64,000 nucleotides of DNA from Escherichia coli (GCF_050920415.1 NZ_CP169309.1), one strand, 5' to 3'; shown: positions 5,221 through 62,407, counted from the first letter of the stretch. Notes: a model not told the origin generated them from the sequence alone. Numbers and translations: made by a program.

Positions 5221-6330
<1,110 letters not shown>

Positions 6331-6364
6331 TGAGGGACACGGTGCCTGTTTCATAAAGATCATT

Positions 6365-6783
6365 TATACCCGTCATACTTCAAGTTGCATATGCGTTGGC
6401 AAGTTATTCAGGGATAGCCGGATGAGTGACATCACCATCCGGCTTAAGATTCCATACTATAATAATTCGAGTTGCAGGACAAAACGCCAGTGGCGTTTTG
6501 AACAACGCTTGCGTTGACCCTGAAAGGGTGAGGCCTAAGGCCGAGTAACGCGACAGGCGAGTGACAAATTCGTCGGGAACGAATTTGACCAGCCTCTGGC
6601 TGGCCTTCGGTGAAAGGCATCCTGCCTTTCAGTCATCCCCAGTCACTTACTGGGGTGAGCGACAAATCCGCATGGAGCGGATTTGAACGCTGCTTGCAGC
6701 GGTCCCGTAAGGGGTGAGGCCCATGGATGGGCCGAATAACTCGCAGACGCAGCACATGCAACTTGAAGTATGATGGGTATATA
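6365..6783. repeat. composite ERIC/IRU-like intergenic repeat with terminal inverted repeats and an embedded REP-like hairpin
   Basis: About 30-bp terminal inverted repeats (TACCCGTCATACTTCAAGTTGCATATGCG at 6365-6395, reverse complement at 6747-6783); internal ACTGGGGTGAGCG and GCAACTTGAAGTATGA match the ERIC consensus as I recall it; hairpin GCCGGATGAGTGACATCACCATCCGGC at 6418-6444. Confidence 0.5.
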
Positions 6784-6939
6784 CACAATGAACTTCAAGA
6801 CACTTGCTTCGGTATCTGGAAATTATCATTAATTCTGGATGCGACCAGCCTTGCTATATCTGGCAATGTTTCTTCAAAAACGTCGATATTGTATCCCAGA
6901 AATCTCACACACTGCTGAACCGGCATGTTCATTAATTAT

Positions 6940-7351
6940 TTATCCAGGCCATTTGCAATCAGTACCATCACTATTATATGCCTCAATATTTTCTTCAAAC
7001 TCAGTTATTTTTCCACTTTTCGATTTATAGTAAGAGCTATTAAATCTTGCACCCTGCGTAGCAACAACATACAATCCGTTGACTTTACATCCTATAACCT
7101 CACTCCATGTATATGTAAACTCTGAAGGTCTATCATCGAAAGTCACTTCCAATTTTTTCGTAAATGCAAGAGGTATGAAATTTGAGGATATTCCATAAAC
7201 CACATAACCTAAAACAACATCACCAGAAGATACTTCAACAAATTTTAAATTTATCTTCCCGAAACTAAAACAGCCAACCGTAGTTTGTTATTTAGCAAAT
7301 AAGAAAAAGGGCATCAAACAAAAAATTAAAACAAATAATTTAACTTTCATA
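6940..7351 (-). pseudogene. small secreted-protein gene interrupted by an in-frame TAA after the signal peptide
   Basis: ATG at 7351 encodes MKVKLFVLIFCLMPFFLFAK then TAA; the same frame continues open into ORF 6940..7203 (…VVYGISSNFIPLAF…). Confidence 0.35.
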
Positions 7352-7703
7352 TCATTTACTCCAATTCAGTTATTCGCCTCTGTACAAAAGCACACACAGA
7401 TTTTGAATTAATGGCGTACAAAAACATAATCGGATGAAAATACCACACCGGAATATTACTGATATAGCGGGATCTTACTCATTCGCTAGACTGAAAATGC
7501 AATTGAACAGAAATTTCTTACTAGTGTTTTTATCAGATGATCGGAAAGGAAATCAACTCACTGGCAAGTATCATAAGCTCAAATTGGCATATTGTATATT
7601 CCCATAAATACTTTTATTTTTTGATTAACATACTCAATACTACACATCACTAATTGAGAGAAGATTAACTTCATCATCTTTGATTAGGTACGTTTTTTAA
7701 TTT

Positions 7704-7922
7704 TCAATGACGCATCATAAAAAAGGGCTTACCAAGTTTAACACTAATAACAGGATATAAAGAAAACATATTGCTATATGAATCCTTTGGCGATGTTTTG
7801 GTTATGGTAATCTTTCCTTCTTTCAAGTGCTCTGCTATTATATGAAATTGAATCGGTCTTGTTGCATCACTTACCCGCAATGGATTACCAGCGTAAGCTT
7901 CATATCCTCCACCATTATTCAT
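7704..7922 (-). other. gene fragment in AT-rich debris (open frame extends upstream to 8020 without a start codon)
   Basis: ORF track plus manual frame extension; no start or RBS, low-complexity AT-rich context. Confidence 0.2.
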
Positions 7923-8268
7923 ATGTAAAATAGTGTATTCGTCATTTAAAAATGACTGCTTACTATCGTAGACTTGGTAGTATATATTACTTATATCAAG
8001 ATAAATTACTATAGAGATATACTTAATTTTTCATTTAGCATTAATGATGTATCCATGGAATCTATACATCTTTCAATATCAGTTATTTTTTCTTCTATAT
8101 ACGTAGCATAATTTTTTGGCACTGGCGTGTTTAGCCCTCATATACCCTCATTAACTAAGACACCATTTTGCTTGCTTTTTACATTGTAATAAAGACAATC
8201 AATATTGAATTTATTATTTTTATATTTCAGTGTTGTATATACAGTAAAATCATGCAGCGAACGCCCAT

Positions 8269-8544
8269 CTAAAACAATTGCGGGCGTGTCAGAAAAAAGT
8301 CAAATGAATAAGATGGATTATTTTCATAATCAGTCATAAATTTCATCTTTCTTATTTCATGATCAACGATCGCATAGATCTCATGATTAGATTCATCATA
8401 TCCATAAATGATTTCACCACCAGTACTGGCAGTAGCAGTAGCACTACTACAAATCAACATAATTACAAGTACATATCTAGTCAAGTTGAAAATCCTTAGG
8501 GGCAGATGATGTTTTTTCCAAGATGGATTGAAATTTTTCAACAT
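8269..8544 (-). CDS. hypothetical small protein with hydrophobic N-terminal segment, possibly a degraded or orphan immunity gene
   Basis: ORF track; segment YVLVIMLICSSATATAS resembles a signal peptide; AT-rich context. Confidence 0.25.
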   Translation of the reverse strand: MLKNFNPSWKKHHLPLRIFNLTRYVLVIMLICSSATATASTGGEIIYGYDESNHEIYAIVDHEIRKMKFMTDYENNPSYSFDFFLTRPQLF

Positions 8545-8854
8545 AAGAATCCATTAATTGCTTCTGATATTTTTCATTAATTATTTTTCGCGTATTATTA
8601 TATTAAATTTTATCACTGTTAATATATGTGGGGATTTTTACTCGTAAAAATCCCCGCCTCAATTCCCCAAATCATAATTGATACAGGACACAACTCTAGC
8701 AATGGTATCGTGAATAGTTTTCTTTAATAAGGCACGTCTCAATTCTTGAACATAAATTCGAATTATTTAGTAAAAAAACATCATCCCTGGGAGTATTACC
8801 TATTTTTGTATAATGCTATATTTATAGTAAACAATTCACAAGAAAATATTATTA

Positions 8855-9805
8855 CTAATATTTATATTCCTCCCACTGAGCACCGTATCGATGCTTTAAC
8901 AGTTTAACTTTAATTTCATCATATGTTTTAACTTTACTACCATCAATCTTAAGGCGAATTTTATTCGAGGTGATATCAACATAATTTCTATTTTCCCCAC
9001 CCGCAGGGAAAAAATCAAACATAAAATTAGACATGTTTTGTTCTTTTTTCATGAGAGCTCCATACTCACACATGTCATTTATATTTTGTATGTATGGAGT
9101 GCCCCCCTGACATGATGGATAATGAAAATCAATTATAGTAAAAAGCGATTTATTGACACTCCTCTGAAAGAACCACTTATTATTTACAATACGATAGGTT
9201 AAAGATTTAAATGTATACCAGTGACTTCCTGGAAGAAAAGAGTAAGCTTCATTAAGATTGACAGTAAATACCTTAGTTTCTCCAGAGGAAAGCTTTACCC
9301 ATTCTGATTTTATATCACAATTATCGCCCATACCAAAATAAAGCTCATCATTGGCATCATCCTCAACAAAATCACATATATTGGTTGCGGAAGGACGGAA
9401 TTTCAGATAGAAACCACTTGTGGATATTAAAAAAGAATCCTCACATAAAGGAGAAAAAAAATAAGGCTCCGATGTGTGTGAGGAGATAGGTAATAATCGT
9501 CTATGAATGAAATTTTCGCTACCCCCCAAATTTGTAAAACTTATTTTTGCTAACACACGAGAGTCAATTTGCTTAACGGTTAATCTAACATCAACATCAA
9601 ACATATTACGATTTGGCAATTTTTCCTCGACTCCGTCAGTGTAATGTGATAACTCAAGTATATTGTCCTCAAGAGTCATCGAATTTAATTTTTGTTCGGA
9701 AACATATTGTGCAATAACCTCATCATTGCAGTATCCATGAAATGAAATAAACATTAGCACTGCAATCTTAACTAATCTCAAAATACTTTTCAATATTGTA
9801 TGCAT
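8855..9805 (-). CDS. putative periplasmic immunity protein (paralogue of 11491..12312) for the HExxH effector
   Basis: N-terminal signal-like segment MHTILKSILRLVKIAVLMFISF; shares SFLPGSHWYTFKSLTYRIVNNKWF with [24 protein letters not shown] of the other immunity candidate; start chosen at the internal Met. Confidence 0.5.
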   Translation of the reverse strand: MHTILKSILRLVKIAVLMFISFHGYCNDEVIAQYVSEQKLNSMTLEDNILELSHYTDGVEEKLPNRNMFDVDVRLTVKQIDSRVLAKISFTNLGGSENFIHRRLLPISSHTSEPYFFSPLCEDSFLISTSGFYLKFRPSATNICDFVEDDANDELYFGMGDNCDIKSEWVKLSSGETKVFTVNLNEAYSFLPGSHWYTFKSLTYRIVNNKWFFQRSVNKSLFTIIDFHYPSCQGGTPYIQNINDMCEYGALMKKEQNMSNFMFDFFPAGGENRNYVDITSNKIRLKIDGSKVKTYDEIKVKLLKHRYGAQWEEYKY

Positions 9806-10567
9806 TATTAAAAACCAGCGGGTCATGTTTTGATTTTAATTCTTTTGCATTGGCAATTTCTCTTTTTTTTCCCAAATCGTTACTGCTTAATCCACCATAA
9901 TACTGTTCTCCATCCCAGATAATAAAAAGGTGAGATAACTCATGGCATAATGTGGAGACTCGAGAGTTTTCTCCCGTTGGATTTTTACATGTGAAATTTT
10001 GTAAGATATCTATAGATATTCTTTCTCGATACTCTAACTTTAAAAGTTCAGCCTTCGACTTATTTTTATACTCACTACTTTGGTATTGGGGCCGATTTAG
10101 ATCTATATGAGTCGTCTGAGCAGCCGGTATACGGGCTGAACCATTGACTAAATTGGTATAATTTTTAAAATTGCCATATATTAGTTGTACATTATCTTGC
10201 GTTCGAGTTTCAATGATCAAGCTATCACAAATCATGATCATTCTGTAAACCCCCTCTTTTATAAAAGTATGTGCGTCAATATTCTTGGTTTGTGGAGTGA
10301 AGTTCCCATTATTATCTGACTTTTGACAAGGAGCATAGTGTTCCATTGTTATAATAGCATCACCTGGTAATCCAAATATATCTTCAAAATTTTTCTGATC
10401 TGCTGGTGTCCATGCTTCCAGATTTTTGCTCTGATATTCAATACTCGCTTTGTTTCTTCCAAAGCAGGCGTTATCATGTTGTAAAATTGATCAGTAACCT
10501 TTGCTTCTTTTTTACATATATTGCCTTTTTGAGTTACCCCTTGTGAACTTCCTTTGTTATTATTCAT
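9768..10567 (-). pseudogene. frameshifted paralogue of the vgrG-linked HExxH effector
   Basis: N-terminal part in ORF 10349..10582 (KEAKVTDQFYNMI versus KEQKITDHFKIMI in the intact copy), remainder in a different frame 9768..10346 carrying STLCHELSH and NNAYNIEKYFEI; frames differ at about 10346-10351. Confidence 0.5.
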
Positions 10568-10975
10568 AAACACCTCCCTCAATCATATCTATACTTTGAT
10601 GCAATAGCCTGACTTTTATCGTCAGCTCACTGTCAGTGATAAATATTTCCGTATACCCATCCTTATCCGTTTCCCCTCGCGCTTGTGTGCCGTCCTCAAA
10701 AAAGGCAATGTAGCGTGTTTCTGAATACGGTATCCCGTCATCGTCTGTAAAATGAAACTGGAGGGTGTATTTCTCAGGTTCATCCTTATCTTCATTGTCG
10801 TTCCCAGAATCATTTCCATCGCCACCACCGACCCCGCCATTGCCTTGCCCGCCCTCTGCACCACCATCTTTATCACTACCTTCATCCGTCAGTGCCTCCA
10901 GCACGCCCGGTTGCAGTGTCGGTACCGGAGTCCCCGGACTACCCCCACCATTCAGATTTATCTTCGGCCCCCAGG
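10560..10975 (-). pseudogene. vgrG 3' fragment (C-terminal about 135 codons of a second vgrG allele)
   Basis: Nucleotide-level similarity to the 3' end of the intact vgrG (for example CCGTCCTCAAAAAAGGCAATGTAGCG..TTTCTGAATACGGTATCCCGTCATCGTCTGTAAAATG), breaking off at about 10975 where the H-repeat fragment begins; encodes DEPEKYTLQFHFTDDDGIPYSETRYIAFFEDGTQ. Confidence 0.6.
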
Positions 10976-11340
10976 GAAAGATTACGAAAGCCCGCTCCCC
11001 GCAAGGACTGACGCCAGATACTTTCTGTCCATGGCTGCTTTTCGCATCTTACGTCTTAACCCTGCCTTGAATACCTTATCATTCGTCAAAATATTAATAG
11101 CGATGTGCCGTATCCCTGAAAATAATTCTGCTGCATTTCCTCTTCTTATTTTGCAGTCGTCTTCATTCATTACCACGTCCAGACGCCAGTGCAGCTTATT
11201 CTCCACGTGCCCGTGGTTTCGGATTGCTGTGGCGAACTTCTCTGCGGTTAAATCAGCAGAACTGATATAATATCTGACCGTCATTTCTGGCTCTTTCTTT
11301 TGTTCTGCTATTATGGACCGAAAGGAGACTGCCACGCATA
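10976..11340 (-). mobile_element. H-repeat (ISAs1-family transposase) 3' fragment
   Basis: ORF 10982..11335 encodes ...[71 protein letters not shown]..., which I recognise as the C-terminal third of the Rhs-associated H-repeat protein; no intact transposase. Confidence 0.6.
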
Positions 11341-11490
11341 ATTTCTTCAGCCCTTTCCATTCAAACGTGAAATCAATAAGTTCATCAGGGACATCGCAAA
11401 CAATATGAAGACGGATTTCTTCTCTGCCGTGACTAAAATGCGAATTATTTAGTACAAAAAAAGCGGCGCACCTTGTTCTTTCCCAGATTC

Positions 11491-12312
11491 CTAATATGGC
11501 AACTTTAAGTTATCGCCGTCTATACTTATAGAAATTTCATCAGGGGTGACGTAAATAGAATTTTTTTCATCCTCAATTGCCCATAACTGATTAATAAAAA
11601 AGTGTTTTTTTTCATCTAATAACAAATTATCACATGTAGTAAAATTATTAATATCAAAAAGATCATCAGCACAATTAATTTTTAAATTTAAAAAATAAAG
11701 AAAAATATTATTGATTGATTTGAGTGTAAACCACTTGTCATTAACAAATTTATAGCCAGATGATTTTATAAAATAATAATTATCTCCTGGTATAAAGGCA
11801 TACATATCATTTAAGGTTATACTCAACAAAAAACTACGACCTGGTTTAATAGTATTCCACCGTTCAGGATTCGTATTAATTTCAAAAGGACATGAACCAC
11901 CTAAGTAGTCCAACGTGATATTCCCAGAGTTGATTCTGAATGGTTTTTTGCATATTGCATCATATTCATCTCCTTTTCCATCTTTTACTTTCATAGGTAG
12001 ATAATATTTAGAAAAAAAATACGTGGTAGAGCTTTTGTTAGTAAAGGTTATGTTAGCAAAAATCCTGTTATTTTTTTTACTCATAGCTAATTGAGCATTG
12101 ACATCCGCTATATAATTTATATGATTACATTTTTTCTTACACTCATCATAATTTTCGATAGGATAAATTAATGGCCTTCCTTTGATATCTCTCTCAAGCC
12201 CAAACCCGTATTTTTTTATTAAAACCATTTCATCTGCAGTCGATTGAAAGGAATAGAAAAATATAATATTTACGATTGTCATTATTATGATTTTTTTTAT
12301 AGCTTGCAGCAT
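11491..12312 (-). CDS. putative periplasmic immunity protein for the adjacent HExxH effector
   Basis: 273-aa ORF directly downstream of the effector; signal-peptide-like N-terminus [26 protein letters not shown]; paralogous to 8855..9805. Confidence 0.5.
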
Positions 12313-12335
12313 TAATATATTTCTCGACTTATTAG

Positions 12336-13127
12336 TTAATGGAGAAGTGCTTTTTCTAATTCCGCTATTTTTTTCTTAACTAAATTGCTTAATATTTCAT
12401 CATTAATCGAGTCTATCTCACTTTCAATTAATCTTATTTCAAAATATCTTTCTATGTTATATGCATTCTCAAATATTTGATCTTTTTGTTTAGAGATCAG
12501 TTTAGTTGCAATACGGATATGTTCGTCATATGAAACTTCATCCTCTTTGCACGTTGAATATTTATCAGTAGTTGTATAATCCTGTGACCACATACCACCT
12601 TTTTTATTATCCCTATAATACCACTGAATATGAGACATTTCATGACATAAAGTAGCAACATGAGAATCCTTTCCCGTTACTGGATTTTTTTTGCCATCTC
12701 TATACTCAAATTTTGCGCCTATGTTAATTATATAGGGCATATCCTTACTTGGGCTGACGAATGCTGCAAATTCATTACAACCTGTATAATTTATAAAACT
12801 GCTCATTGTTAAATCATTAGCTATAATCATTAATCTTCTCACACCATCCATCATAAGAAATCTAGCATTCATGCGCCTGCCTGTATTATGTCCATATTTT
12901 CTTATATTAACTTCCTTATTTCCTTTAACACCAAAGATCTTACTGAAATCATATTCCTCCTGTGCTCCCCATCTCAAAAGATCATCTGCTCTTTTTATCA
13001 AAACCAACTTTTGTGCCTTACGAGCCTTATCAATCATTATTTTAAAATGATCAGTTATTTTTTGCTCTTTCACACATTCTTCTGGCTCTGGCTTTGGTTG
13101 TCCAGAAGTTTGATTATTATCGTCCAT
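12336..13127 (-). CDS. putative T6SS effector, zincin-like metallopeptidase (HExxH motif), vgrG-linked
   Basis: HEMSH in ATLCHEMSHIQWY; no signal peptide; probable start MDDNNQ at 13127 overlaps the vgrG stop by 11 bp; conserved C-terminal ENAYNIERYFEI shared with the paralogue. Confidence 0.55.
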   Translation of the reverse strand: MDDNNQTSGQPKPEPEECVKEQKITDHFKIMIDKARKAQKLVLIKRADDLLRWGAQEEYDFSKIFGVKGNKEVNIRKYGHNTGRRMNARFLMMDGVRRLMIIANDLTMSSFINYTGCNEFAAFVSPSKDMPYIINIGAKFEYRDGKKNPVTGKDSHVATLCHEMSHIQWYYRDNKKGGMWSQDYTTTDKYSTCKEDEVSYDEHIRIATKLISKQKDQIFENAYNIERYFEIRLIESEIDSINDEILSNLVKKKIAELEKALLH

Positions 13128-15522
13128 AGTGTCCTTCCATTGAGAGAAAATCATCATTCGCAAATAGCAACTTCACTTTAATTTCATGTTTGCTAGATAC
13201 AAAAAAACGCTCTGTATACCCCTCTTCATCCGTTTCTCCGCGGGTCTGCGTGCCATCCTCAAAGAAGGCAATGTAGCGGGTTTCTGAATACGGTATCCCG
13301 TCATCGTCTGTAAAATGGAACTGGAGAGTATATTTTTCAGGTTCATCCTCATCGTCACCTCGATCATCACCACCACTTCCGGTCACGCAGTTCCCTCCAG
13401 AGTTTTCATTTTCTTCTCCGGAATCACTGCCATCACCACTCTTCTCATCCCCCAGTGTCTTCAGCACCGCCGGTTGCAGCGTCGGTACAGGCGTCCCCGG
13501 ACTGCCTCCCCCGTTCAGATTTATCTTCGGCCCCACTATATCCACGCCCCCTGAATGGATGACCACAAACGAGCCACCCAACTTCAGGCTTATCCGGCTG
13601 CTGCTCTCCAGCACGATATCCCCGTCCACCTTTATCCCCAGCGCACCACTCACCTTCCTCGCCAGGTCGCCTTTCACCTCCAGGCTGTGTTTTCCCTCCA
13701 CCAGGCTGATGTGGTTTCCTGTCGTTTTGTGCTCCTGCTTCCCTTCCACCGTCACCTTTCGGTCGTTTCTGACGTACAGACCGTCATCGTGGCTGACGTT
13801 CACCCGCCGGTCGTTCGTCACCTTCAGCGTCTGGTCGTTGCGCACCGTGATGCTCCGGTCATGGGCCACCGTGATACTCTGGTCGTGGCCCCCTTCTTTT
13901 CTGGTGCCGACCTCAACCGTCTGCCCCTTCACCACCCTTATCTTCTGGTCGTTACCGATGGTCTCCGTATGGTCATGCTTCACGTCCGTCGTCCGGTCGT
14001 TAAGCACCTCCGTGTCCATGTTCTTCTGCGCGTGGATATACACCTGCTCACTGTCCGTCGCATCCTCGAAACGCAGTTCATTAAAGCCGCTTCCTTTATA
14101 GGTCTTCGAGCGGATGGTCATCTGCGTCCGCGTGCCCGGTAAATCCCCCGGTGAACGGTTATCTTCATGGTAGGTCCGCCCCGTCACAATGGGCTGGTCC
14201 GGGTCTCCGTTCAGAAAGTCCACTATCACTTCCTGACCCACACGCGGTATCGCCAGATTGCCGAACCCCGGTCCCGCCCATGCCTGCGACACCCGTATCC
14301 AGCATGAACTCTCCTCCGTCATCCCGTGATAACGGTCCCAGTGAAACTTCACCCGTACCCGGCCATGCTCGTCGCAGAATATCTCCTCGCCCTTCGGCCC
14401 GGTCACGATGGCACTCTGCGGGCCGTCCACCTTCGGCTTCGGCAGCGGCGCGTGACGCCACGTCCTGTCTGCCGGTATCACCTCAAACTGGTTACTCAGC
14501 GTCGTCCCTTCACCGTGACTGCCGTGCAGCGCCTGCGGCTGTTCTCCCCGCAGTGTGCTTCCCACAACCTGCCATTCCCGGTTCAGCGTATCCGACGGGT
14601 GACCCGACAGGGTAAACCGCGTTCCCGGCCACAGCCGCGCCGTGTTACACACCCCGCTCGCCGTCTCCGCCCCGTTCCGCCACCCTTCCGTCTGGTAACG
14701 CGCAAAATCCTGGCCATGCTGCTCATCCTTGAAACGCCCCGGATAATCAAATATCTCGTACTGCGTTCCCTGCCCGTTCAGGCTCTCCCCGTCATGGCTG
14801 TAGTACCCCGGCCACCCCGGCACTTTAAACGTATAATCCTGCGTCTCCACCGACGCCACGCTTATCTGCGCACGGTAACGAAACTCACTGATGTACTCCG
14901 TCGTTCCCCCGGTCGTCGTGTTCGGGTTAAACGCCAGCGCCCCCATTCCCGTCAGCCCCGCCACGTCATCACACACCGCCAGCTTCTGTTCCGGCCCGTC
15001 CTGACTGCAGCGTTCATAAAAGAAGATACCTTCCTCCGCCCACAGCCGGGTCAGGAACGCCAGGTCGCTCTCCCCGTACTGCACGCAGAACTCCCGCGCC
15101 GGATGGTCTTCATAAAACAGCGGCATCCACGCCGTCACCCCGTTCTCTCTCAGAAGCTGTGCTGATATCGTCCCGATGTCCTGCTGCTGGAAGATACGGA
15201 AGTTCTGCCGTAACCCTGCCCGCCACAGCGGCGGGCTGATGCTCAGGGAATAACGCATCTGCCAGTCGTTGTTCTCACCGAGCTGCACCTCCGTCACGAT
15301 ACCGCTGACGTAACGCTGTGCAGTGTCGCCCTGCCAGACCGTCAGCACCGCGCTTTTCTCCAGAAAATCCTCCGCCGTCAGGTCGGACAGCCCGCTGGCG
15401 ATATCCACATCCAGGATGAACGGTGTGCAGTGGTGCTGGTACAGACGGAAGCTCACCACCGCCGTCGCCATCTCCACGATGTCGTCCACCGACAGCGTGA
15501 AACGTAATCCTTCTGAGGACAT
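13117..15522 (-). CDS. vgrG: T6SS spike protein VgrG with C-terminal extension (Gly/Asp/Glu-rich linker plus TTR-like adaptor domain)
   Basis: gp27/gp5-like core (LRFTLSVDD..., octapeptide beta-helix repeats KIRVVKGQTVEVGTRKEGGHDQSITVAHDRSITVRND...); likely start MSSEGLRFTL at 15522 (ORF track begins at 15555). Confidence 0.85.
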   Translation of the reverse strand: MSSEGLRFTLSVDDIVEMATAVVSFRLYQHHCTPFILDVDIASGLSDLTAEDFLEKSAVLTVWQGDTAQRYVSGIVTEVQLGENNDWQMRYSLSISPPLWRAGLRQNFRIFQQQDIGTISAQLLRENGVTAWMPLFYEDHPAREFCVQYGESDLAFLTRLWAEEGIFFYERCSQDGPEQKLAVCDDVAGLTGMGALAFNPNTTTGGTTEYISEFRYRAQISVASVETQDYTFKVPGWPGYYSHDGESLNGQGTQYEIFDYPGRFKDEQHGQDFARYQTEGWRNGAETASGVCNTARLWPGTRFTLSGHPSDTLNREWQVVGSTLRGEQPQALHGSHGEGTTLSNQFEVIPADRTWRHAPLPKPKVDGPQSAIVTGPKGEEIFCDEHGRVRVKFHWDRYHGMTEESSCWIRVSQAWAGPGFGNLAIPRVGQEVIVDFLNGDPDQPIVTGRTYHEDNRSPGDLPGTRTQMTIRSKTYKGSGFNELRFEDATDSEQVYIHAQKNMDTEVLNDRTTDVKHDHTETIGNDQKIRVVKGQTVEVGTRKEGGHDQSITVAHDRSITVRNDQTLKVTNDRRVNVSHDDGLYVRNDRKVTVEGKQEHKTTGNHISLVEGKHSLEVKGDLARKVSGALGIKVDGDIVLESSSRISLKLGGSFVVIHSGGVDIVGPKINLNGGGSPGTPVPTLQPAVLKTLGDEKSGDGSDSGEENENSGGNCVTGSGGDDRGDDEDEPEKYTLQFHFTDDDGIPYSETRYIAFFEDGTQTRGETDEEGYTERFFVSSKHEIKVKLLFANDDFLSMEGHYGR

Positions 15523-15805
15523 ATAAACCCCATAGCTACCGCACTCATGGTGCAAACCCTACAGAATTATAAGAAAGACTTAAGTGAGATATCCGTCAGA
15601 TAGCAACTATTAGGAAAATATTTATATACATTTCATGAATACATTCATTAATACCGAGATGTTTTTGTCTATATAAACAGAGCAAGCTAACGTCCTCACT
15701 CCATGAAAGAAACTACGTAGGGGCCTTTCGGTCCATAACAACTTTTTCCCTGTTATATCCTGACGTTCTGGTCTACTGGTGTAGTCATGCATATTGCAAC
15801 GTTCT

Positions 15806-15915
15806 ACCCATGGAAAGATAAATAAAGCCAGCTCTCCGCAAGGACTGAAGCGAGGTGCTTTCTGTCCATAGCTGCTTTTCGCAACTTACTCCTTAACCCA
15901 ACACTGAATTTCTTA
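15806..15915 (-). mobile_element. short H-repeat (ISAs1-family) 3'-end remnant, direct repeat of 10976-11065
   Basis: About 110 bp about 85% identical to the 3' end of the H-repeat fragment at 10976..11340 (..CCGCAAGGACTGA..CTTTCTGTCCAT.GCTGCTTTTCGCA..); encodes ..[25 protein letters not shown]. Confidence 0.45.
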
Positions 15916-16055
15916 TGATTTGTCACAGTATGAACTTTTAATTTCATACATTGCTCTTTAGTCAATAGAAGAAAAATAAGCACCCTCTCCCAAACGACAC
16001 AAATAACCTGCAAATGGGAAATGACTTATTACTTAGAAATTTGCAGAGATATAAA

Positions 16056-16337
16056 TCACGAGATATATCCACCTTTTGAGTTAACAGTTACAGACGTTAT
16101 AACATTATCTTTTATCCAGATATCAACAAAAAAGTCCTTACCACAATAAAGACATTCACAATATCCTTCAGAGATAAAGTTGTCCTTAAGTTTATTTCTG
16201 GTTATATTAATAAGTTTATCGCCAGGATTGTAATGTACTAAATTTCCAGATGGCACAAACATCTCAATTTCACACTGTCCTGACGTTCCACATCGAGGGC
16301 AAACGCACCATGCTTTCAATAAATCATAATTCGACAT
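16056..16337 (-). CDS. hypothetical Cys-rich zinc-ribbon-like small protein
   Basis: 93-aa ORF with two Cys clusters (CVCPRCG and CECLYCG); located between ybbP and vgrG. Confidence 0.35.
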   Translation of the reverse strand: MSNYDLLKAWCVCPRCGTSGQCEIEMFVPSGNLVHYNPGDKLINITRNKLKDNFISEGYCECLYCGKDFFVDIWIKDNVITSVTVNSKGGYIS

Positions 16338-16387
16338 TATATTACCTTAATTTATTTCACATCAGCATCCCCCCTTGCAAACCACAA

Positions 16388-16744
16388 CTAAACTATTCCC
16401 ATAAAATACAACGAGATAATTTTACTGTTAAACGTACATTCACAAAACTCAGGGGAAGAAAAATGACCATCAGTCAAAAATAAAGATAGTTTGCTTAGTG
16501 CGTAATCAATTGAATCAAGCGACAAGTATAATTTTATTACTAGTGAGTTCTGTATCAGGACATCATTTTCATTGGGGGATTGTAAAAGTAATAAATTTTT
16601 ATACGCTACAGGTGATCTGTTTTCCAGTCTAATAGGTTTGCTTGCTTCCGTCTCCAATAAACTATAAAGAGCACAAACCATCTCATGAGCATCATCTTTC
16701 TCAAAATGTAAATGAAACCCGCCCAGAGATTTATTAGCAATCAT
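16388..16744 (-). CDS. hypothetical protein
   Basis: 118-aa ORF from the ORF track in the AT-rich island flank; no recognisable motif. Confidence 0.3.
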   Translation of the reverse strand: MIANKSLGGFHLHFEKDDAHEMVCALYSLLETEASKPIRLENRSPVAYKNLLLLQSPNENDVLIQNSLVIKLYLSLDSIDYALSKLSLFLTDGHFSSPEFCECTFNSKIISLYFMGIV

Positions 16745-16841
16745 AATACGTTTCTAAAGTTGATTTGAAATTTTGCATTTCATGCTCATCAAAAAAATAA
16801 ATATATTTTAACTACAAAGCAAACATCACAGCGCATAGCGG

Positions 16842-17057
16842 TTAATATTCTACCTTAACGACTTTCATTCCTCTTTCAATCATACCATTAATTAATTGAT
16901 AATACTCTTTATCCCCTACATCTACTATTAGAATATGTCCGGTAAGTTCATTGATGAATAAATACTCAGGTTCCTCATCTGTACCAGCATTTGAAATAAC
17001 CCAACCTGGATCAGTACCATCTATAAAAAACTCCCACTCTTTAAAATTAACACTCAT
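16842..17057 (-). CDS. hypothetical small acidic protein (possible orphan immunity protein)
   Basis: 71-aa ORF, compact acidic protein, AT-rich context next to a polymorphic-toxin island. Confidence 0.3.
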   Translation of the reverse strand: MSVNFKEWEFFIDGTDPGWVISNAGTDEEPEYLFINELTGHILIVDVGDKEYYQLINGMIERGMKVVKVEY

Positions 17058-17179
17058 TTAATCCTCCTTTTTATACTCGCAAGAAAAGGAGAGTATCGTT
17101 TCTAACTCTGAAATAAAAGTATGATAAAAGACAGGACCTGGCCTCATTGAATGTTATTTCTCAATTCTTGATAGTTTTT

Positions 17180-17280
17180 GCCGGATGCGGCTTGAACGCT
17201 TATCTGGCCTACACAATCTTGCAAAATCAATATATTGCACGCTCTTCGTAGACCAGATAAGCGTAGCGCATCAGGCAATC
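17180..17280. repeat. REP/BIME-type palindromic units downstream of ybbP
   Basis: GCCGGATGCGGCTTGAACGCTTATCTGGCCTAC and CAGATAAGCGTAGCGCATCAGGC are REP consensus-like hairpins. Confidence 0.55.
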
Positions 17281-17292
17281 TAACACCTGTCA

Positions 17293-19707
17293 TCACCCCG
17301 CAAACTGCCTGAACAGCGCCTTACCCTTAACCAGTCGCGCACCCAACCAGCCGCCGAAAAGCGACAGCAGCAGTGCACCGCTACAAGGCAGAACAATCCA
17401 CAATCGCCAGTCTGGCTCCCACGGGAAATCAAACACTTTTGATTGCAGTACCGCCAGTGCCGTTTCCGCACCAATTGCGGCCACCAGGCCGGAGACAAAC
17501 CCGAGCATGGCGAACTCACACCACAATGTCGTGCGCAGCAGTTTTTTGCCCGCACCGAGAGTGCGCCACACCACCAGCTCCTGATGACGCTGACGCATTC
17601 CCACCTGCACCTGTGCCAGCAACAGCAACATACCGCAGGCGGTGACCAGCACCACCATCACTTCCAGCGCCCGACTTACCTGCTCCAGCACCTGACCGAC
17701 CTGTTTTAAAATCGCGCCAATGTCTAACAGGCTAATGGTCGGGAACTGGCGGTTGAGTTGCGTCAACATGCCGTTGCCATTCTCCCAGCGGAAACTGGTA
17801 AGCCAGCTCTGCGGTTGCCCGTCTAATGCCCCTTCCGGGAAAATAAAATAGAAATTAGGCCGCAGACTTTCCCAGTCCACTTTGCGCAGGCTGGTCACTT
17901 TAGCGCGGAACTCCTGGGTATCGCCCATAAAGGTGACGGTATCGCCGAGGGTAACATTTAAGCGTTTCGCCAGCCCCTCTTCCATCGATACTTCATCGGC
18001 TTTTGGCGGCCAGTTACCAGCGACAATCGGATTATGATCGGGCCGCGTATTTTGCCAGGTGAGATTGAGTTCGCGGTTGAGCGCCTCATCTTCATTGCCT
18101 TCTGTCGGCTTGCCGTTAATCGCCGTCAGCCGCGCCCGCACCACCGGATAAAACGATTCCGGGACTATCTGATGTTCCGCGAGGAACGCTTTTAGCGGAG
18201 TAACCTGTTCTGTGGCGATGTTGATTAAAAAGTAGTTAGGACTTTCTGGCGGTAGCTGCTGTTGCCAGCGATCGAGCAGATCGCCACGCAACACCAGCAA
18301 CAGTGCCAGCAGCATAAAGGAGAGCGAAAATGCCGAAAGCTGGCTTAACGTTGACCACGGCTGACGTAACAGGCGGCTAACCGCCAGGCGCAGAGGCAGC
18401 GATTTCAGCGTCATGCGGCGAAGTACATTCAGCAGCATCCAGCCCAGGACACCGCACAGCAAAGCTAGTACTATCGCGCCCGCCAGCACCGCCCAGAGCA
18501 GCATACTGCCGCCCATCAGTCCGGCGAGCAGCAGCACAACCACCACACTGACAATCGGCAGATAAAACTTGAGCGGCCAGACGTTCGCTACCACATCATT
18601 ACGTAATACGCGTAAAGGCTGCGTTGCCAGCAACAAGCGGTACGGTCGTAGCCCCACCAGCAGCGAGATGACCGTCATGGTGCCAAGCGCCCACAGCCAT
18701 GGCCAGAGGCTGGCAGGCGGTAGTGCGGCAGGCAGAACGGGCTTGAGCAGTACCATCAACACGTTTTCGAACAACAGGCCTATCGCCCCGCCGGTAACGG
18801 CTGAAAGCGCCAGCACCATCAGCCACTGACCGACGATTAGCTTACGCAGTTGCGCTCGCCCAGCCCCCAGCGTTTTGAGGATCGCCACCAGATCGTAGCG
18901 ACTACGACAGTAATGATTCATCGCCACCGCCACCGCTGCCACTGCCAGCAGCAAGGTCAGAAGCGCCGAAAGCAGCAGAAACTGTTGCGAGCGTTCCATC
19001 GATCGCCCCAGCGCGCCTTCGTCCTGTTCCAGACCGTACCAGCGTTGTTCGGGTTTAAGCTGGGGTAACAACCATTTCTCATAGCCGTCGAGCTGGTTCT
19101 CGCTGCCGCCGAATTTATAGCGCCAGGTGACCCGACTCCCCGGCTGCACGGCTCCGGTTTTATCGACATCCGCCAGATTCATCATCAGACGCGGAGCCAT
19201 CTGGAAGGGGTTAAAACCGGAATCCGGTTCCTGAATCACTTCTCCGGCAATCCGCAAGGTGGCATCGCCCACGTCAATGGTGTCGCCTGTTTTCAGGTTA
19301 AGCAGTGCCATCAGGCGTGGGGCCAGCAATACGCTGCCCGCCTGCGGTTTCAGGCCAGGGGGATTGGTTTGCAGATCGCCATACATCGGGTAGATATCAT
19401 CCACCGCTTTAACATTCGCCAGCTGCGGCGTATCGCCCGCAAAAGTCATCGTGGCGAAAGTCAGCTGCTTGCCGACTTTCAGGCCGCGCTTTTGCGCTTC
19501 CTCCAGCCACGCTTGCGGCACTTCGCGTGAACTGCGCAACGCCCGATCGCCCGCCATAAACTCACGGCTTTGCTGGCTTAAGCCCTTCTCCATGCGATCG
19601 CTGATATTGCCCAGCGCCAGCACGCAGGCCACCGCCAGGCTTAGCGCCAGCCAGACAATTAATAGCGACGGCGAGCGCCATTCGCGCCAGAACCAACGTG
19701 CAATCAT
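17293..19707 (-). CDS. ybbP: ABC transporter permease (FtsX-like, two permease domains)
   Basis: About 804 aa from MIARWFWREWRSPSLLIVWLALSL; overlaps ybbA by 4 bp. Confidence 0.88.
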   Translation of the reverse strand: MIARWFWREWRSPSLLIVWLALSLAVACVLALGNISDRMEKGLSQQSREFMAGDRALRSSREVPQAWLEEAQKRGLKVGKQLTFATMTFAGDTPQLANVKAVDDIYPMYGDLQTNPPGLKPQAGSVLLAPRLMALLNLKTGDTIDVGDATLRIAGEVIQEPDSGFNPFQMAPRLMMNLADVDKTGAVQPGSRVTWRYKFGGSENQLDGYEKWLLPQLKPEQRWYGLEQDEGALGRSMERSQQFLLLSALLTLLLAVAAVAVAMNHYCRSRYDLVAILKTLGAGRAQLRKLIVGQWLMVLALSAVTGGAIGLLFENVLMVLLKPVLPAALPPASLWPWLWALGTMTVISLLVGLRPYRLLLATQPLRVLRNDVVANVWPLKFYLPIVSVVVVLLLAGLMGGSMLLWAVLAGAIVLALLCGVLGWMLLNVLRRMTLKSLPLRLAVSRLLRQPWSTLSQLSAFSLSFMLLALLLVLRGDLLDRWQQQLPPESPNYFLINIATEQVTPLKAFLAEHQIVPESFYPVVRARLTAINGKPTEGNEDEALNRELNLTWQNTRPDHNPIVAGNWPPKADEVSMEEGLAKRLNVTLGDTVTFMGDTQEFRAKVTSLRKVDWESLRPNFYFIFPEGALDGQPQSWLTSFRWENGNGMLTQLNRQFPTISLLDIGAILKQVGQVLEQVSRALEVMVVLVTACGMLLLLAQVQVGMRQRHQELVVWRTLGAGKKLLRTTLWCEFAMLGFVSGLVAAIGAETALAVLQSKVFDFPWEPDWRLWIVLPCSGALLLSLFGGWLGARLVKGKALFRQFAG

Positions 19708-22727: not shown

Positions 22728-22878
22728 TTTGTAGGCCTGATAAGACGCGCCAGCGTCGCATCAGGCATCCGCGCATAGCCGCCGGATGCGGCGTGAACGC
22801 CTTATCCGGCCTACCAAACCGTGCTAATTCAATACATTGCAGGTGCCATGTAGGTCTGATAAGACGCATCAGGCATCG
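22728..22878. repeat. BIME cluster of three REP units between cnoX and fetB
   Basis: GTAGGCCTGATAAGACGCGCCAGCGTCGCATCAGGC, GCCGGATGCGGCGTGAACGCCTTATCCGGCCTAC, GTAGGTCTGATAAGACGCATCAGGCATCGC. Confidence 0.6.
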
Positions 22879-25933: not shown

Positions 25934-26296
25934 TTACTCTTCCCGGCCTTTCCCCATACTTTTTTGGTCTTCATCCGGATAGTGTTTTTTTAGATATTCC
26001 AGGACGTTTTTATTGACCTTGTGTTGCGTATACACCCACCCTTTCCAGTAATCAGGCTGGTCCAGATAAACTTCTGGCGGAATGGTGAAATCAGAAAGCG
26101 TTAACCATTCGGCTAACAGATCGGGGTTTCGCTTCTGGATCAACTGCAACAGCATGATCAGCGACATGGCAGAGGCAGGAGCCGTACTATCGCCACTTAA
26201 ATATTTCCACACCGTTGATCGGTTCGAACGAAAAAGGATGGGAAGCAGCGCCCGGTCCAGATTCATTTCATTAAAAATCTTCTCAAATTCATTCAT
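25934..26296 (-). CDS. hypothetical protein (strain-specific insertion between ybbJ and cueR)
   Basis: 120-aa ORF; not part of the K-12 ybbJ-cueR junction as I recall it; function unknown. Confidence 0.4.
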   Translation of the reverse strand: MNEFEKIFNEMNLDRALLPILFRSNRSTVWKYLSGDSTAPASAMSLIMLLQLIQKRNPDLLAEWLTLSDFTIPPEVYLDQPDYWKGWVYTQHKVNKNVLEYLKKHYPDEDQKSMGKGREE

Positions 26297-26661
26297 TTAA
26301 TTTTCCTGCCTGGCGTAAACCTCTTAAAAATTGAGATTTATCAAAGAAACGCATTTTAGCACACATCAGGAACTGCTTCACGTTTAGTCCAGAAACAGAA
26401 TTTATTTCGCTTATCAAAACAAGTCTTTACTCTTTTTTACATTGAAAGAGCACGAAATGATTTCCTTTTTTATTTATATGAGAAACCATTTTTGTTTCTT
26501 ATTGATGGCGTTTACGCTTACACCAGACAAAAATGCGCTTTACATCACACAAATGGCGGCGTAGATTTCGATTAAATTGCAACGTAGTTTATTTCTTAAA
26601 ACAATATTATTTGTTTCTTATAGAAACATTAATGCGACTTATTTTGAACAAGAGAAAATGA

Positions 26662-27678
26662 ATGAAAACTGTAAACGTAGCTTTACTGGCACTCATAATT
26701 TCAGCAACATCCAGCCCTATTGTTTTAGCTGGTGATACCATTGAAGCGGCGGCAACAGAGCTTTCAGCCATTAACTCTGGCATGTCGCAATCGGAGATTG
26801 AGCAGAAGATTACCCGCTTTTTAGAACGCACCGACAACAGCCCCGCTGCATATACCTATTTGACTGAACATCACTACATCCCTTCTGAAACACCTGATAC
26901 CACTCTGACTCCCCCTGTCCAGACAGATCCTGACGCAGGACAAAAAACCGTTGCCGCTACAGGTGATGTACAGACAACCGCCCGTTATCAGAGCATGATC
27001 AACGCCCGACAGTCTGCGGTAACTGATGCCCAGCAAACGCAAATTACAGAGCAACAGGCGCAGATCGTAGCCACACAAAAAACGCTCGCCGCGACTGGAG
27101 ATACGCAAAATACCGCGCATTATCAGGAGATGATTAATGCCAGGCTGGCGGCTCAAAATGAGGCTAATCAGCGCACTACCACTGAACAAGGGCAGAAAAT
27201 GAATGCGCTGACAACCGATGTGGCAGCACAACAGCAATATGAAAGGACTCAATACGATAAACAAATGCAAAGTCTGGCGCAGAAGTCTGTCCAGGCACAT
27301 GAGCAAATTGAAAGTCTGAGACAAGATTCCGCACAAACGCAGCAACAGTTAACCAACACCCAAAACCGGGTCGCTGATAACAGCCAGCAAATTAACACGC
27401 TCAATAACCATTTCGATTCGCTGAAAAACGAAGTTGAGGACAATCGTAAAGAAGCCAATGCGGGAACTGCATCTGCCATCGCTATCGCCTCACAACCACA
27501 GGTGAAAACCGGTGACTTGATGATGGTGTCAGCGGGAGCGGGAACGTTCAACGGTGAATCTGCGGTGTCTGTAGGAACATCTTTTAATGCCGGAACGCAT
27601 ACGGTACTTAAAGCAGGTATTTCTGCGGATACACAATCTGATTTCGGTACGGGTGTCGGCGTGGGATATTCGTTCTAA
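26662..27678 (+). CDS. mini trimeric-autotransporter-like protein (signal peptide, Gln-rich coiled-coil stalk with internal repeat, YadA-type C-terminal anchor)
   Basis: N-terminal signal peptide MKTVNVALLALIISATSSPIVLA; C-terminal AGTASAIAIASQPQ...GDLMMVSAGAGTFNGESAVSVGTSF...KAGISADTQSDFGTGVGVGYSF follows the YadA/Hia/Eib anchor pattern with terminal aromatic residue; repeat KTVAATGDVQTTARYQSMINAR / KTLAATGDTQNTAHYQEMINAR. Confidence 0.6.
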   Translation: MKTVNVALLALIISATSSPIVLAGDTIEAAATELSAINSGMSQSEIEQKITRFLERTDNSPAAYTYLTEHHYIPSETPDTTLTPPVQTDPDAGQKTVAATGDVQTTARYQSMINARQSAVTDAQQTQITEQQAQIVATQKTLAATGDTQNTAHYQEMINARLAAQNEANQRTTTEQGQKMNALTTDVAAQQQYERTQYDKQMQSLAQKSVQAHEQIESLRQDSAQTQQQLTNTQNRVADNSQQINTLNNHFDSLKNEVEDNRKEANAGTASAIAIASQPQVKTGDLMMVSAGAGTFNGESAVSVGTSFNAGTHTVLKAGISADTQSDFGTGVGVGYSF

Positions 27679-27731
27679 TTTTAACAGCAATTTCTTATTC
27701 GCAATTTTCCGTACATTATTTAAGGTTAACA

Positions 27732-28154
27732 ATGATGAATAGCTCCATTAAATCGTTTTCCCTGCTGGCGGTTATATTACTGGCTGGCTGTAGTTCACCC
27801 ACTTCCCGCATCGCAGATTGCCAGGCGCAGGGCGTCAGTCATGATACCTGTTATCTCGCAGAACAACAGCGTCAGACGGCTATTTTAAGTGCATCCGAGG
27901 CGCAGGCATTTAAAAATGCAGAAGCCGCACAACATGCCCAGGCGGCAAAGAAAGCCATTTATAAAGGATTTGGCATGACCTTTAGAATGAGCAGTAAGAA
28001 CTTTGCTTATCTCAATGATTCATTATGTGCAATTGATGAAGACAATAAAGATGCCACTGTTTATCAGTCAGGTCTTTATAACGTCATTGTTTATCACCAC
28101 ACGGGAAAAGTCGCCTTAATGAAGGAAGGTCAGTTTGTGGGTTATTTAAAATGA
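27732..28154 (+). CDS. putative lipoprotein
   Basis: Signal peptide with lipobox LLAGC (MMNSSIKSFSLLAVILLAGCSS); stop overlaps the next start (ATGA). Confidence 0.5.
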   Translation: MMNSSIKSFSLLAVILLAGCSSPTSRIADCQAQGVSHDTCYLAEQQRQTAILSASEAQAFKNAEAAQHAQAAKKAIYKGFGMTFRMSSKNFAYLNDSLCAIDEDNKDATVYQSGLYNVIVYHHTGKVALMKEGQFVGYLK

Positions 28155-28357
28155 AGGAGCAAAGGAAAATCCCCCTGACGCATATTATGATTATCGGTGC
28201 GTTTATTTTTGCCTTCTTACAAGTGGTGTTATTAGCCTCCCTGGTTCACGCTGTGAATGTTAACAACGAAATCCAGGAAGGCTTATTTCAGTCGGGGCGC
28301 ATTATGGTAGAAAGTTTGCAGCATATTCTGTCTGTGCAACCGGTGATTAACGGGTAA
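28151..28357 (+). CDS. small single-pass membrane protein
   Basis: 68-aa ORF with one hydrophobic helix IMIIGAFIFAFLQVVLLASLV; translationally coupled to the lipoprotein gene. Confidence 0.3.
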   Translation: MKEQRKIPLTHIMIIGAFIFAFLQVVLLASLVHAVNVNNEIQEGLFQSGRIMVESLQHILSVQPVING

Positions 28358-28439
28358 GAGCACCGCTTCCATTTATAGAGCAATAGTCACCAGCGTAATT
28401 TTCTGGCACAGTTCAGGGAACTGAAATTTTGGCTAAGGA

Positions 28440-29669: not shown

Positions 29670-30077
29670 TCACCCCGCTCGATGATGACAGCAGCCGGAG
29701 AGATTTTCGATAATTGGGCAGTCGGCGCTGTCATCACCGGGGCAGGCATTCGCCAGCGCCAGTAGCTGGTCGCGCATGGATTGCAGCTCCTCAATGTGCC
29801 GTTCGATCTCCGCTACCTTCTCCAGCGTACGACGTTTGACGTCGGCACTGTGACGCTGCGGATCGTTAAACAGATTCACCAGTTCGCCGCTCTCTTCCAG
29901 GTTAAAGCCCACCTGGCGCGCCTGGCGCAGTAAGGTCAGTTCGTTGAGATGCTGCTGCGTGTAGGTTCGATAACCATTTTCGCTGCGCATCGGCGGCGTC
30001 ACTAGCCCCTTTTCTTCATAGAAGCGAATGGCTTTGCTGGTCAGGCCGGTAATTTTTGCTACATCGCTAATGTTCAT
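29670..30077 (-). CDS. cueR: MerR-family copper-responsive transcriptional regulator
   Basis: 135-aa [29 protein letters not shown]... with C-terminal metal-binding Cys pair (CPGDDSADC), matching recalled CueR. Confidence 0.92.
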
Positions 30078-62204: not shown

Positions 62205-62407
62205 AAAAATGGCCAATATCGCTATTGGCCCGTCAAAGAGGAATTTCATTTTTTTATTATTATGCCGTCACTTTAAGCGACGGTGTAACTCGATTGTCGC
62301 TCAATCTCACCATCCTGCCAATACTCTTAGGCAAGATGACTCTTTTTTTTGGACCGCCATCAGGCGTATGCTTGCTTCGTTTTTTTGTTTAAGGCAGGAA
62401 AATTACC

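Follow-up and report, generated by a model that had tools for sequence, protein, structure and literature searches.

A vgrG toxin island, probably an auxiliary type VI secretion locus, at the selU-ybbP site of an Escherichia coli chromosome

Introduction

Auxiliary vgrG islands, VgrG-linked periplasmic metallopeptidases (PMC7904677, PMC10673891), variable Rhs toxin sites, and arrays of displaced toxin modules (PMC3150448; PMC9796082) have all been described before. Here we analyse a 64,000-nucleotide stretch of an Escherichia coli chromosome (GCF_050920415.1, NZ_CP169309.1), referred to as the window, in which the backbone genes selU (mnmH, ybbB) and ybbP are separated by a vgrG-containing insert. 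We consider it likely that this region is an auxiliary type VI secretion system (T6SS) toxin island, which combines a gene for the spike protein VgrG (vgrG1) with genes for an aspzincin toxin (E1) and its immunity protein (I1), followed by a displaced older module (vgrG2', E2, and I2), and that it occupies a site that otherwise holds rhsD or is empty. A search of the literature for ybbP in combination with vgrG returned nothing relevant, and this island at selU-ybbP was not found described.

The closest described system is the PAAR-VgrG-peptidase M35-immunity-ISAs1' module of enteroaggregative E. coli (EAEC) 042 (EC042_RS08380-08400) and of strain BCE049, where it was named "effector locus 1, module 5" (PMC7904677). 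The gene order and the stop/start overlap of the module are the same as in the window, E1 is 99% identical, and I1, E1, the 3' end of vgrG, and the deleted ISAs1 remnant share 93-100% DNA identity with it. The island differs in its selU-ybbP location, in the lack of an upstream PAAR gene, in carrying another allele of the 5' two-thirds of vgrG (60-90% identity), and in the older paralogous module located downstream.

The RhsD element of K-12 lies at the same site, oriented the same way with respect to ybbP, and is built on the same logic: a large conserved gene for delivery precedes a variable toxin and its immunity gene, and displaced orphan toxin fragments come after them. Furthermore, an ISAs1/H-repeat is associated with Rhs at this site in strain DETEC-S792. 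Unlike in RhsD, the toxin of the island is a separate cargo protein and not a C-terminal extension of the delivery protein. Orphan arrays in which a newer cassette lies upstream and an older one is kept downstream are represented by the Vibrio cholerae auxiliary clusters (Kirchberger 2017, cited in PMC9796082), the hcp/vgrG/paar islands of Pantoea T6SS1 (PMC9796082), and the orphans of contact-dependent inhibition (CDI) and Rhs systems (PMC3150448). They share with the island a decayed older toxin, an intact immunity gene, and a stub of the conserved upstream gene at the old junction. Unlike in those arrays, an ISAs1 remnant follows each module here, and the stub is the 3' end of vgrG, not an rhs or cdiA core.

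VgrG-linked periplasmic zinc metallopeptidases with periplasmic immunity proteins, as in the window, are exemplified by VgrG2b with PA0261 of Pseudomonas aeruginosa and by the VgrG/DUF2345/M35/immunity locus of E. coli PAR (PMC10673891). E1 is free-standing and not fused to VgrG; it is set beside the protein of the PAR locus by description, and no DUF2345 protein or Pfam match was found in the island. The aspzincins (MEROPS M35), such as the peptidyl-Lys metalloendopeptidase of Grifola frondosa (1G12) and AsaP1 of Aeromonas (2X3A), have the same fold, with an HExxH motif and a downstream Asp in G-x-x-x-x-D. E1 is 17-19% identical to these enzymes, contains an additional N-terminal helical hairpin and C-terminal helix, and would be an intracellular T6SS cargo, in contrast to the Sec-secreted pro-enzyme aspzincins.

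Results

The insert between selU and ybbP

The gap between selU and ybbP measures 10,962 bp, in agreement with an original prediction, made from the sequence of the window, that the two genes lie about 11 kb apart with accessory DNA between them. The alignment to K-12 at selU and ybbP, which that prediction had proposed as a check, showed that homology to MG1655 ends at window position 6338 and returns at 17287-17290; the backbone is approximately 96.6% identical to K-12. According to the K-12 annotation, the genes from ybbP to selU are rhsD, ybbC, ylbH, ybbD, ylbI, and ylbG, which matches the rhsD-ybbC-ylbH-ybbD content given for the site in that prediction. All of the island genes are on the minus strand, and the GC content is 26-35% over most of the insert, reaching ~60% only in vgrG.

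Searching positions 6331-17292 with the K-12 RhsD and YbbC proteins (tblastn) provided no match and no YD-repeat or Rhs core. The identification of the region as an Rhs element was rejected because the YD-repeat core is absent, and the database name "type IV secretion protein Rhs" given to the vgrG stub is a misnomer. The same type of search with YlbG and two open reading frames (ORFs) located downstream in EAEC 042 found nothing in the island.

Distribution of the site variants

The occupancy of the site was surveyed in 5426 complete E. coli genomes. The K-12-type ybbP-rhs junction is present in 2853 of the 5426 (~53%), and mnmH and ybbP are at most 1.5 kb apart, which makes the site essentially empty, in 1908 (~35%). 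In IHE3034 the two genes are separated by 58 bp; in 2013C-4282 the gap is 713 bp and contains a dinQ-like gene. The selU-ybbP vgrG island was found in 3/5426 genomes, and the remaining ~665 fall outside these three classes. Many of the genomes with an empty site contain a segment of ~713 bp with a DinQ-type type I toxin gene and repetitive extragenic palindromic (REP) repeats (2013C-4282, L010 1101-1813).

Proteins identical to those of the island are encoded by Escherichia sp. 10290, HH154_1D, HH091_1A, and STEC_7v. The best match to the backbone outside the three island-bearing genomes is 2013C-4282. Both 10290 and 2013C-4282 belong to cryptic clade I (PMC10100065). The island is rare in RefSeq E. 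coli probably because cryptic clade I is itself rare there, and the site is polymorphic even within this clade.

The spike protein and its proposed dependence on a core T6SS

VgrG1 passes the cut-off of the T6SS spike family TIGR03361 with 588.7 bits against the required 186, and contains the Pfam domains Phage_GPD, Phage_base_V, and Gp5 (Gp5_trimer_C). It matches VgrG1 in the PDB with an E-value of 1e-91, and phmmer aligns 6SJL over the core only. The core is followed by a tail that consists of an acidic linker and a C-terminal beta domain of ~70 residues, for which there is no match in Pfam. A transthyretin-like (TTR-like) adaptor, as in the EAEC VgrG1-Tle1 pair, is a conceivable candidate for this C-terminus, for which the low-confidence model had no significant fold match. 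The original prediction had spoken of vgrG modules in the plural; two modules are indeed present, and only one of them has a complete vgrG.

The original prediction that the window contains no T6SS structural or PAAR gene was borne out by a tblastn search with a PAAR protein, which gave only a chance match (E 2.5), and by an annotated relative. This relative, strain MFDS1022581, matches the window collinearly at 99.9-100% identity apart from an IS2 insertion in its chromosome, and the annotation of the MFDS1022581 stretch that matches the 64-kb window includes no T6SS core or PAAR gene. A complete core T6SS cluster is located ~430 kb away in MFDS1022581, and was thus seen in this relative and not in the genome of the window itself. 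The cluster contains hcp, tssB, C, E, F, G, J, K, L, H, A, M, tagH, vasI, and vasL, together with several vgrG genes, two PAAR genes, Tae4, Tle1, and an M23 peptidase. The VgrG of the island is 97.9% identical over 514 residues to one VgrG of the cluster and 89.8% identical over 793 residues to another. Because of this 90-98% identity to VgrGs of the nearest genome, VgrG1 may be usable by a distant core T6SS. The proposed dependence of an auxiliary island on a core located elsewhere is thus supported from a near-identical genome, not from the source genome, and the locus has the make-up of an auxiliary (orphan) vgrG island when the core cluster is judged from MFDS1022581.

The cluster VgrG that is 89.8% identical is followed by a third homologous toxin-immunity pair and has a tail of the type found in the stub of the island. 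This third set (L009 26251-30142) is composed of the VgrG, a 307-residue aspzincin-like toxin, and a 190-residue immunity homologue that abuts an IS2.

The toxin E1 and the putative immunity protein I1

The start of E1 overlaps the stop of vgrG by 11 nt, and the protein has no signal peptide. Its family comprises 29 clusters and is confined to Enterobacterales. In an alignment of 20 homologues of E1, the motif C-H-E-x-x-H (H162-E163-x-x-H166), D183, and a C-terminal NAYNxExYF are invariant. E1 scores 19.0 bits against Pfam Aspzincin_M35 (PF14521), below the gathering threshold of 30, and sub-threshold M35 matches occur in 14/20 of its relatives, the best with an E-value of 1.3e-6. A phmmer search of all PDB sequences with E1 returned nothing, even at E 10. 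The AlphaFold2 model of E1, built on the family alignment, has a predicted local distance difference test (pLDDT) score of 89, and the only significant PDB matches identified by Foldseek were 1G12, 1GE6, and 2X3A (probability 1.0, target-normalised template modelling score up to 0.72). Based on the model, E1 is predicted to be a zinc-dependent endopeptidase of the aspzincin fold. The grouping of E1 with the metallopeptidase VgrG2b of P. aeruginosa was dropped, since Foldseek did not return VgrG2b.

E1 is identical at 260/263 residues to FQU84_13640 of BCE049, the "M35 peptidase" of "module 5". The toxicity reported for the BCE049 effector in E. coli was confined to its periplasm-directed form (PMC7904677), and this published experiment on a near-identical protein is the reason to expect that E1 is active in the bacterial envelope. 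I1 has a hydrophobic N-terminus that resembles a signal peptide, as judged by eye from the sequence. Neither I1 nor I2 had a match in searches of Pfam, NCBIfam, or PADLOC.

E1 and E2 are 29% identical (E 2e-24), and the similarity of I1 and I2 has an E-value of 1e-21; to judge from these sequence comparisons, E1-I1 and E2-I2 are two diverged tandem copies of one toxin-immunity family. In three paralogous pairs the toxin gene and the downstream gene for an immunity-like protein are adjacent and co-vary.

The displaced module and the ISAs1 remnants

Residues 664-793 of VgrG align to positions 10970-10581 with 63% identity (tblastn), and the resulting stub, vgrG2', begins exactly at the end of ISAs1 remnant 2 (Table 1). 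Direct repeats D1 and D3 of vgrG2' match positions 13211-13534 of vgrG1. The stub is followed by the divergent E2-I2 pair and lies downstream of the full-length locus, which is the arrangement of an orphan displacement array. E2 is intact and 266 residues long in MFDS1022581 and N96. I2 is identical to the copy in MFDS1022581, and its N-terminus reads like a signal peptide.

ISAs1 remnants are located after each of the two modules and just upstream of vgrG1. Remnant 1 corresponds to ISAs1 residues 339-377 (tblastn; 77.5% identity in blastn), and its direct repeat D2 is 80% identical to 10970-11097. Remnant 2 contains transposase residues 226-378 (NF033564, E 5.8e-35) and matches a full ISAs1 copy with 98% identity over 10970-11434 and 100% over 11434-11460 (blastn). 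In remnant 3, positions 8679-8717 and 8725-8778 are 90% and 84% identical to full ISAs1 (blastn), and there is a direct repeat (D8) with 11436-11460. No intact ISAs1 with a DDE transposase and both ends is present in the island, only fragments.

Table 1 Features of the selU-ybbP site and its flanks (window coordinates)
Feature	Position	Strand	Evidence or remark
mnmH/selU (ybbB), backbone flank	5236-6330	+	364-aa ORF; annotated mnmH in identical relatives
MITE-like repeat (miniature inverted-repeat transposable element), 417 bp, 30-nt terminal inverted repeats	6365-6781	none	Inverted repeats 93% complementary
Distal hypothetical ORF	6940-7350	-	136 aa in strain N96; listed ORF here only 87 aa
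Hypothetical ORF, 91 aa, hydrophobic N-terminus	8269-8544	-	153 aa in strain RMDEC465
ISAs1 remnant 3, fragments from 5' part of the insertion sequence	8679-8778	-	77 bp downstream of I2
I2, intact orphan immunity-like protein, 316-323 aa	8855-9826	-	23% identical to I1
E2, orphan aspzincin-like toxin paralogue, pseudogene here	9768-10567	-	1-bp deletion between 10427 and 10428
vgrG2', 3' remnant of older vgrG	10581-10971	-	Annotated ORF 10560-10904, 114 aa
ISAs1 remnant 2, internally deleted, both ends kept	10970-11460	-	30 bp downstream of I1
I1, immunity-like protein, 273 aa	11491-12312	-	98-100% DNA identity to EAEC 042 module
E1, predicted aspzincin (M35-like) zinc-metallopeptidase toxin, 263 aa	12336-13127	-	Motifs, model, orthologue
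vgrG1, intact T6SS spike protein, 801 aa	13117-15522	-	TIGR03361, E 8.7e-177
ISAs1 (H-repeat) remnant 1, 3' end only	15806-15941	-	284 bp upstream of vgrG1
Three small hypothetical ORFs as a block	16034-17178	-	97% identical block beside ybbP in strain 2017-02-2CC
REP-type palindromic repeats adjoining ybbP	17179-17292	none	Common to empty-site strains
ybbP, backbone flank	17293-19707	-	ORF and annotation in relatives

Probable cassette exchange within vgrG

A counterpart of segment 10963-15529 is found between yncG and yddH in many E. coli, where a PAAR gene lies upstream of it. We take yncG-yddH to be the rhsE locus of K-12. Compared with EAEC 042, the identity is 98-100% over I1, E1, and the last ~250 bp of vgrG, decreases to 92% just upstream of the vgrG 3' end, and is 60-90% over the remaining 2 kb of vgrG. 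Such a drop of identity inside vgrG, seen against a backbone that is itself approximately 96.6% identical to K-12, indicates a cassette exchange by homologous recombination with the crossover within the gene. The cassette composed of the vgrG 3' end, E1, I1, and ISAs1' was therefore most likely exchanged recently in this manner, as far as sequence comparison can tell. At yncG-yddH, MFDS1022581 has no module and contains an intact ISAs1-family element (ISEc1). The explanation of the island as a duplication of the yncG-locus module was rejected for MFDS1022581 on this basis; it appears that in this lineage the cassette was relocated and not duplicated.

The exchange among vgrG copies has apparently continued. 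Of 29 mismatches between the window and MFDS1022581 over 40 kb, 26 are located in the 196 bp of vgrG1 between 13669 and 13864, where the version in the window is 99.1% identical to the main-cluster vgrG paralogue of MFDS1022581. Such clustering suggests that one vgrG copy was converted by another very recently, and recombination among the vgrG paralogues seems to be ongoing.

An alternative is that vgrG1, E1, and I1 arrived through insertion sequence activity, as an ISAs1-bounded composite transposon or an excised circle. The segment has ISAs1 3'-end fragments on both sides, in direct orientation (15806-15941 and 10970-11460), the ISEc1 at yncG-yddH of MFDS1022581 is intact, and an rhs-ydcD-ISAs1 unit lies upstream of a second rhs in DETEC-S792. 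We consider this route unlikely, since the fragments on either side share only 77-80% identity and their truncations differ, no duplication of the target site came to light, and the decrease in identity to EAEC 042 inside vgrG, from 99.5% to 92% to 60-90%, is what a homologous crossover predicts. The two processes are also compatible, as the ISAs1 copies may merely supply the second region of homology.

The link between Rhs elements and vgrG islands is stronger than was guessed in the original prediction, according to which the two types of element share one toxin hotspot. That idea is supported by the polymorphism of the site and by the occurrence of the same cassette at yncG-yddH in EAEC 042 and BCE049. 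Both Rhs and vgrG islands carry ISAs1/H-repeat remnants, and the rhs-ydcD-ISAs1-rhs tandem at selU-ybbP of DETEC-S792 is the Rhs analogue of the same architecture. The yncG-yddH locus of BCE049 (L016 17159-27101) contains two tandem PAAR-vgrG modules, each of which is followed by an ISAs1 remnant; there, the M35 toxin is followed by an immunity gene that is broken into two ORFs.

Signs of decay and the target of the toxin

Several observations weigh against a functional T6SS toxin island. The C-terminal domain of VgrG1 was modelled as all-beta with a pLDDT of only 65 and all of its fold matches were non-significant, so that the loading of E1 onto the spike is a step that we infer. Moreover, the literature holds no report that we could find of I1 neutralising E1, and the core cluster is known from MFDS1022581. 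No PAAR gene precedes vgrG here, unlike in EAEC 042 and BCE049. A scan for promoter and terminator consensus sequences found none convincingly placed upstream of vgrG, and such a scan is uninformative in AT-rich DNA; 38 promoter-like sites were counted, only a little above the mean of 25.3 (sd 4.3) in shuffled sequences. Decay is evident within the lineage, as vgrG is frameshifted in N96, MFDS1022581 contains an IS2 inserted at window position 7594-7599 (L003 4111-5339), and the deletion at 10427/10428 (GAGCGAAAAA -> GAGCAAAAA) leaves an E2 ORF of 192 residues in the window. The deletion may be a sequencing error; an identical 192-residue product is on record in one NCBI genome.

It has to be asked whether the island is a decaying relic that is neither expressed nor loaded by a T6SS, and persists by drift or for the sake of its immunity genes only. 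The damage to E2, to the N96 vgrG, and by IS2, the reduction of all three ISAs1 copies to remnants, the missing adjacent PAAR gene, and the lack of a clear promoter would all fit such a relic. Nevertheless, we regard it as improbable. The genes vgrG1, E1, and I1 are full-length in the window; E1 and I1 are 98-100% identical to a widespread module, and E1 is close to an experimentally toxic orthologue. In addition, the nearest genome encodes a complete core cluster and two PAAR proteins, and the very recent gene conversion from a main-cluster vgrG kept the reading frame.

It is very improbable that E1 is an anti-host protease directed at eukaryotes, like Aeromonas AsaP1, and not an interbacterial weapon: its closest solved folds do include AsaP1, an extracellular toxic metalloendopeptidase, and T6SS deletions attenuated BCE049 in mice, but deletion of the effector locus left its virulence unattenuated (PMC7904677), an orthologue with 99% identity acts as a toxin in the periplasm of E. 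coli, and a signal-peptide-like partner that follows the toxin and varies along with it across three paralogous pairs is the hallmark of an antibacterial effector with its immunity protein.

Other features of the site and the window

The original claim that everything between selU and ybbP is accessory held for the insert and failed for its edge, since the final 111 bp beside ybbP (17179-17289) are REP-type repeats that are common to ~1750 genomes and not specific to the island. The adjacent block of three small ORFs (16056-16337, 93 residues with two CxxC pairs; 16388-16744, 118 residues; 16842-17057, 71 residues) adjoins ybbP without any vgrG in E. coli strain 2017-02-2CC, and its proteins are found in E. 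fergusonii too. The block is probably an older resident of the site, outside the vgrG cassette. The small ORFs at 16056-17057, 8269-8544, 7704-7922, and 6940-7350 had no match in Pfam, NCBIfam, or PADLOC. In RMDEC465, which like MFDS1022581 carries the island, a group II intron is located beside ybbP (L004 21467-23155).

The 417-bp MITE-like element near selU had been described as resembling the enterobacterial repetitive intergenic consensus (ERIC). This did not hold: neither the ERIC1R nor the ERIC2 primer sequence matches the element with up to 3 mismatches, and the ERIC/IRU assignment was dropped. The ends of the element may resemble those of ERIC. Stretches of it (6649-6782 and 6742-6782) are also found in other genomes of E. 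coli.

An Rfam scan detected no RNA family within the island. Outside it, naRNA4 (REP-derived nucleoid-associated RNA; 22734-22811) and sroB (62203-62286) scored above the gathering score. The window contains two additional accessory blocks. The one at ~25934-29670, between ybbJ and cueR, encodes several hypothetical proteins and one that ends in a YadA C-terminal domain. The other, of ~25 kb at ~30074-55650 between cueR and ybaT, encodes an HlyD-family adaptor, a type I secretion permease/ATPase, a TolC-family protein, and the giant, internally repetitive BapA-related adhesin SiiEA (~20.8 kb). The cueR-ybaT block is presumably missing from K-12.

Discussion

We propose that vgrG1 encodes a spike subunit that could be used by a core T6SS encoded elsewhere in the chromosome. 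E1 would ride on the spike, probably with its conserved N-terminal helical hairpin docked on the small C-terminal domain of VgrG, and would be fired into the periplasm of a neighbouring cell, where its HExxH/Asp zinc-protease activity would be toxic. Export of I1 to the periplasm would protect sister cells by neutralising E1. The incoming cassette would have displaced the resident module, composed of the vgrG 3' stub, E2, and I2, in the downstream direction, with the ISAs1 remnants marking each junction. The most plausible reason for the persistence of I2 is that it protects against strains in which E2 is still fired. By analogy, this would be the same accretion logic as that of the orphan toxin/immunity arrays behind rhs and cdiA and in the V. 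cholerae auxiliary clusters.

It is conceivable, if on balance doubtful, that the ISAs1/H-repeat remnants are a functional part of a portable cassette, supplying the downstream homology by which vgrG-linked and rhs-linked cassettes travel between selU-ybbP (rhsD), yncG-yddH (rhsE), and the main T6SS cluster, and that these loci together form one recombining toxin library. The 324-bp repeats of the vgrG 3' end could also enable a switch from E1/I1 to E2/I2 by deletion where E2 is intact.

The locus introduces no new mechanism, since the toxin family, the type of island, and the displacement process have all been described before. It provides a clean natural example of a cassette swap with a breakpoint in vgrG, of an orphan module left behind, and of recent vgrG gene conversion. 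It is also a concrete and quantified case of a single site that holds an Rhs element, nothing, or rarely a vgrG island, while the same vgrG-toxin-immunity cassette is found at different Rhs-associated loci in different lineages. These observations support a picture in which Rhs loci and auxiliary T6SS islands form a single recombining toxin arsenal with interchangeable parts.

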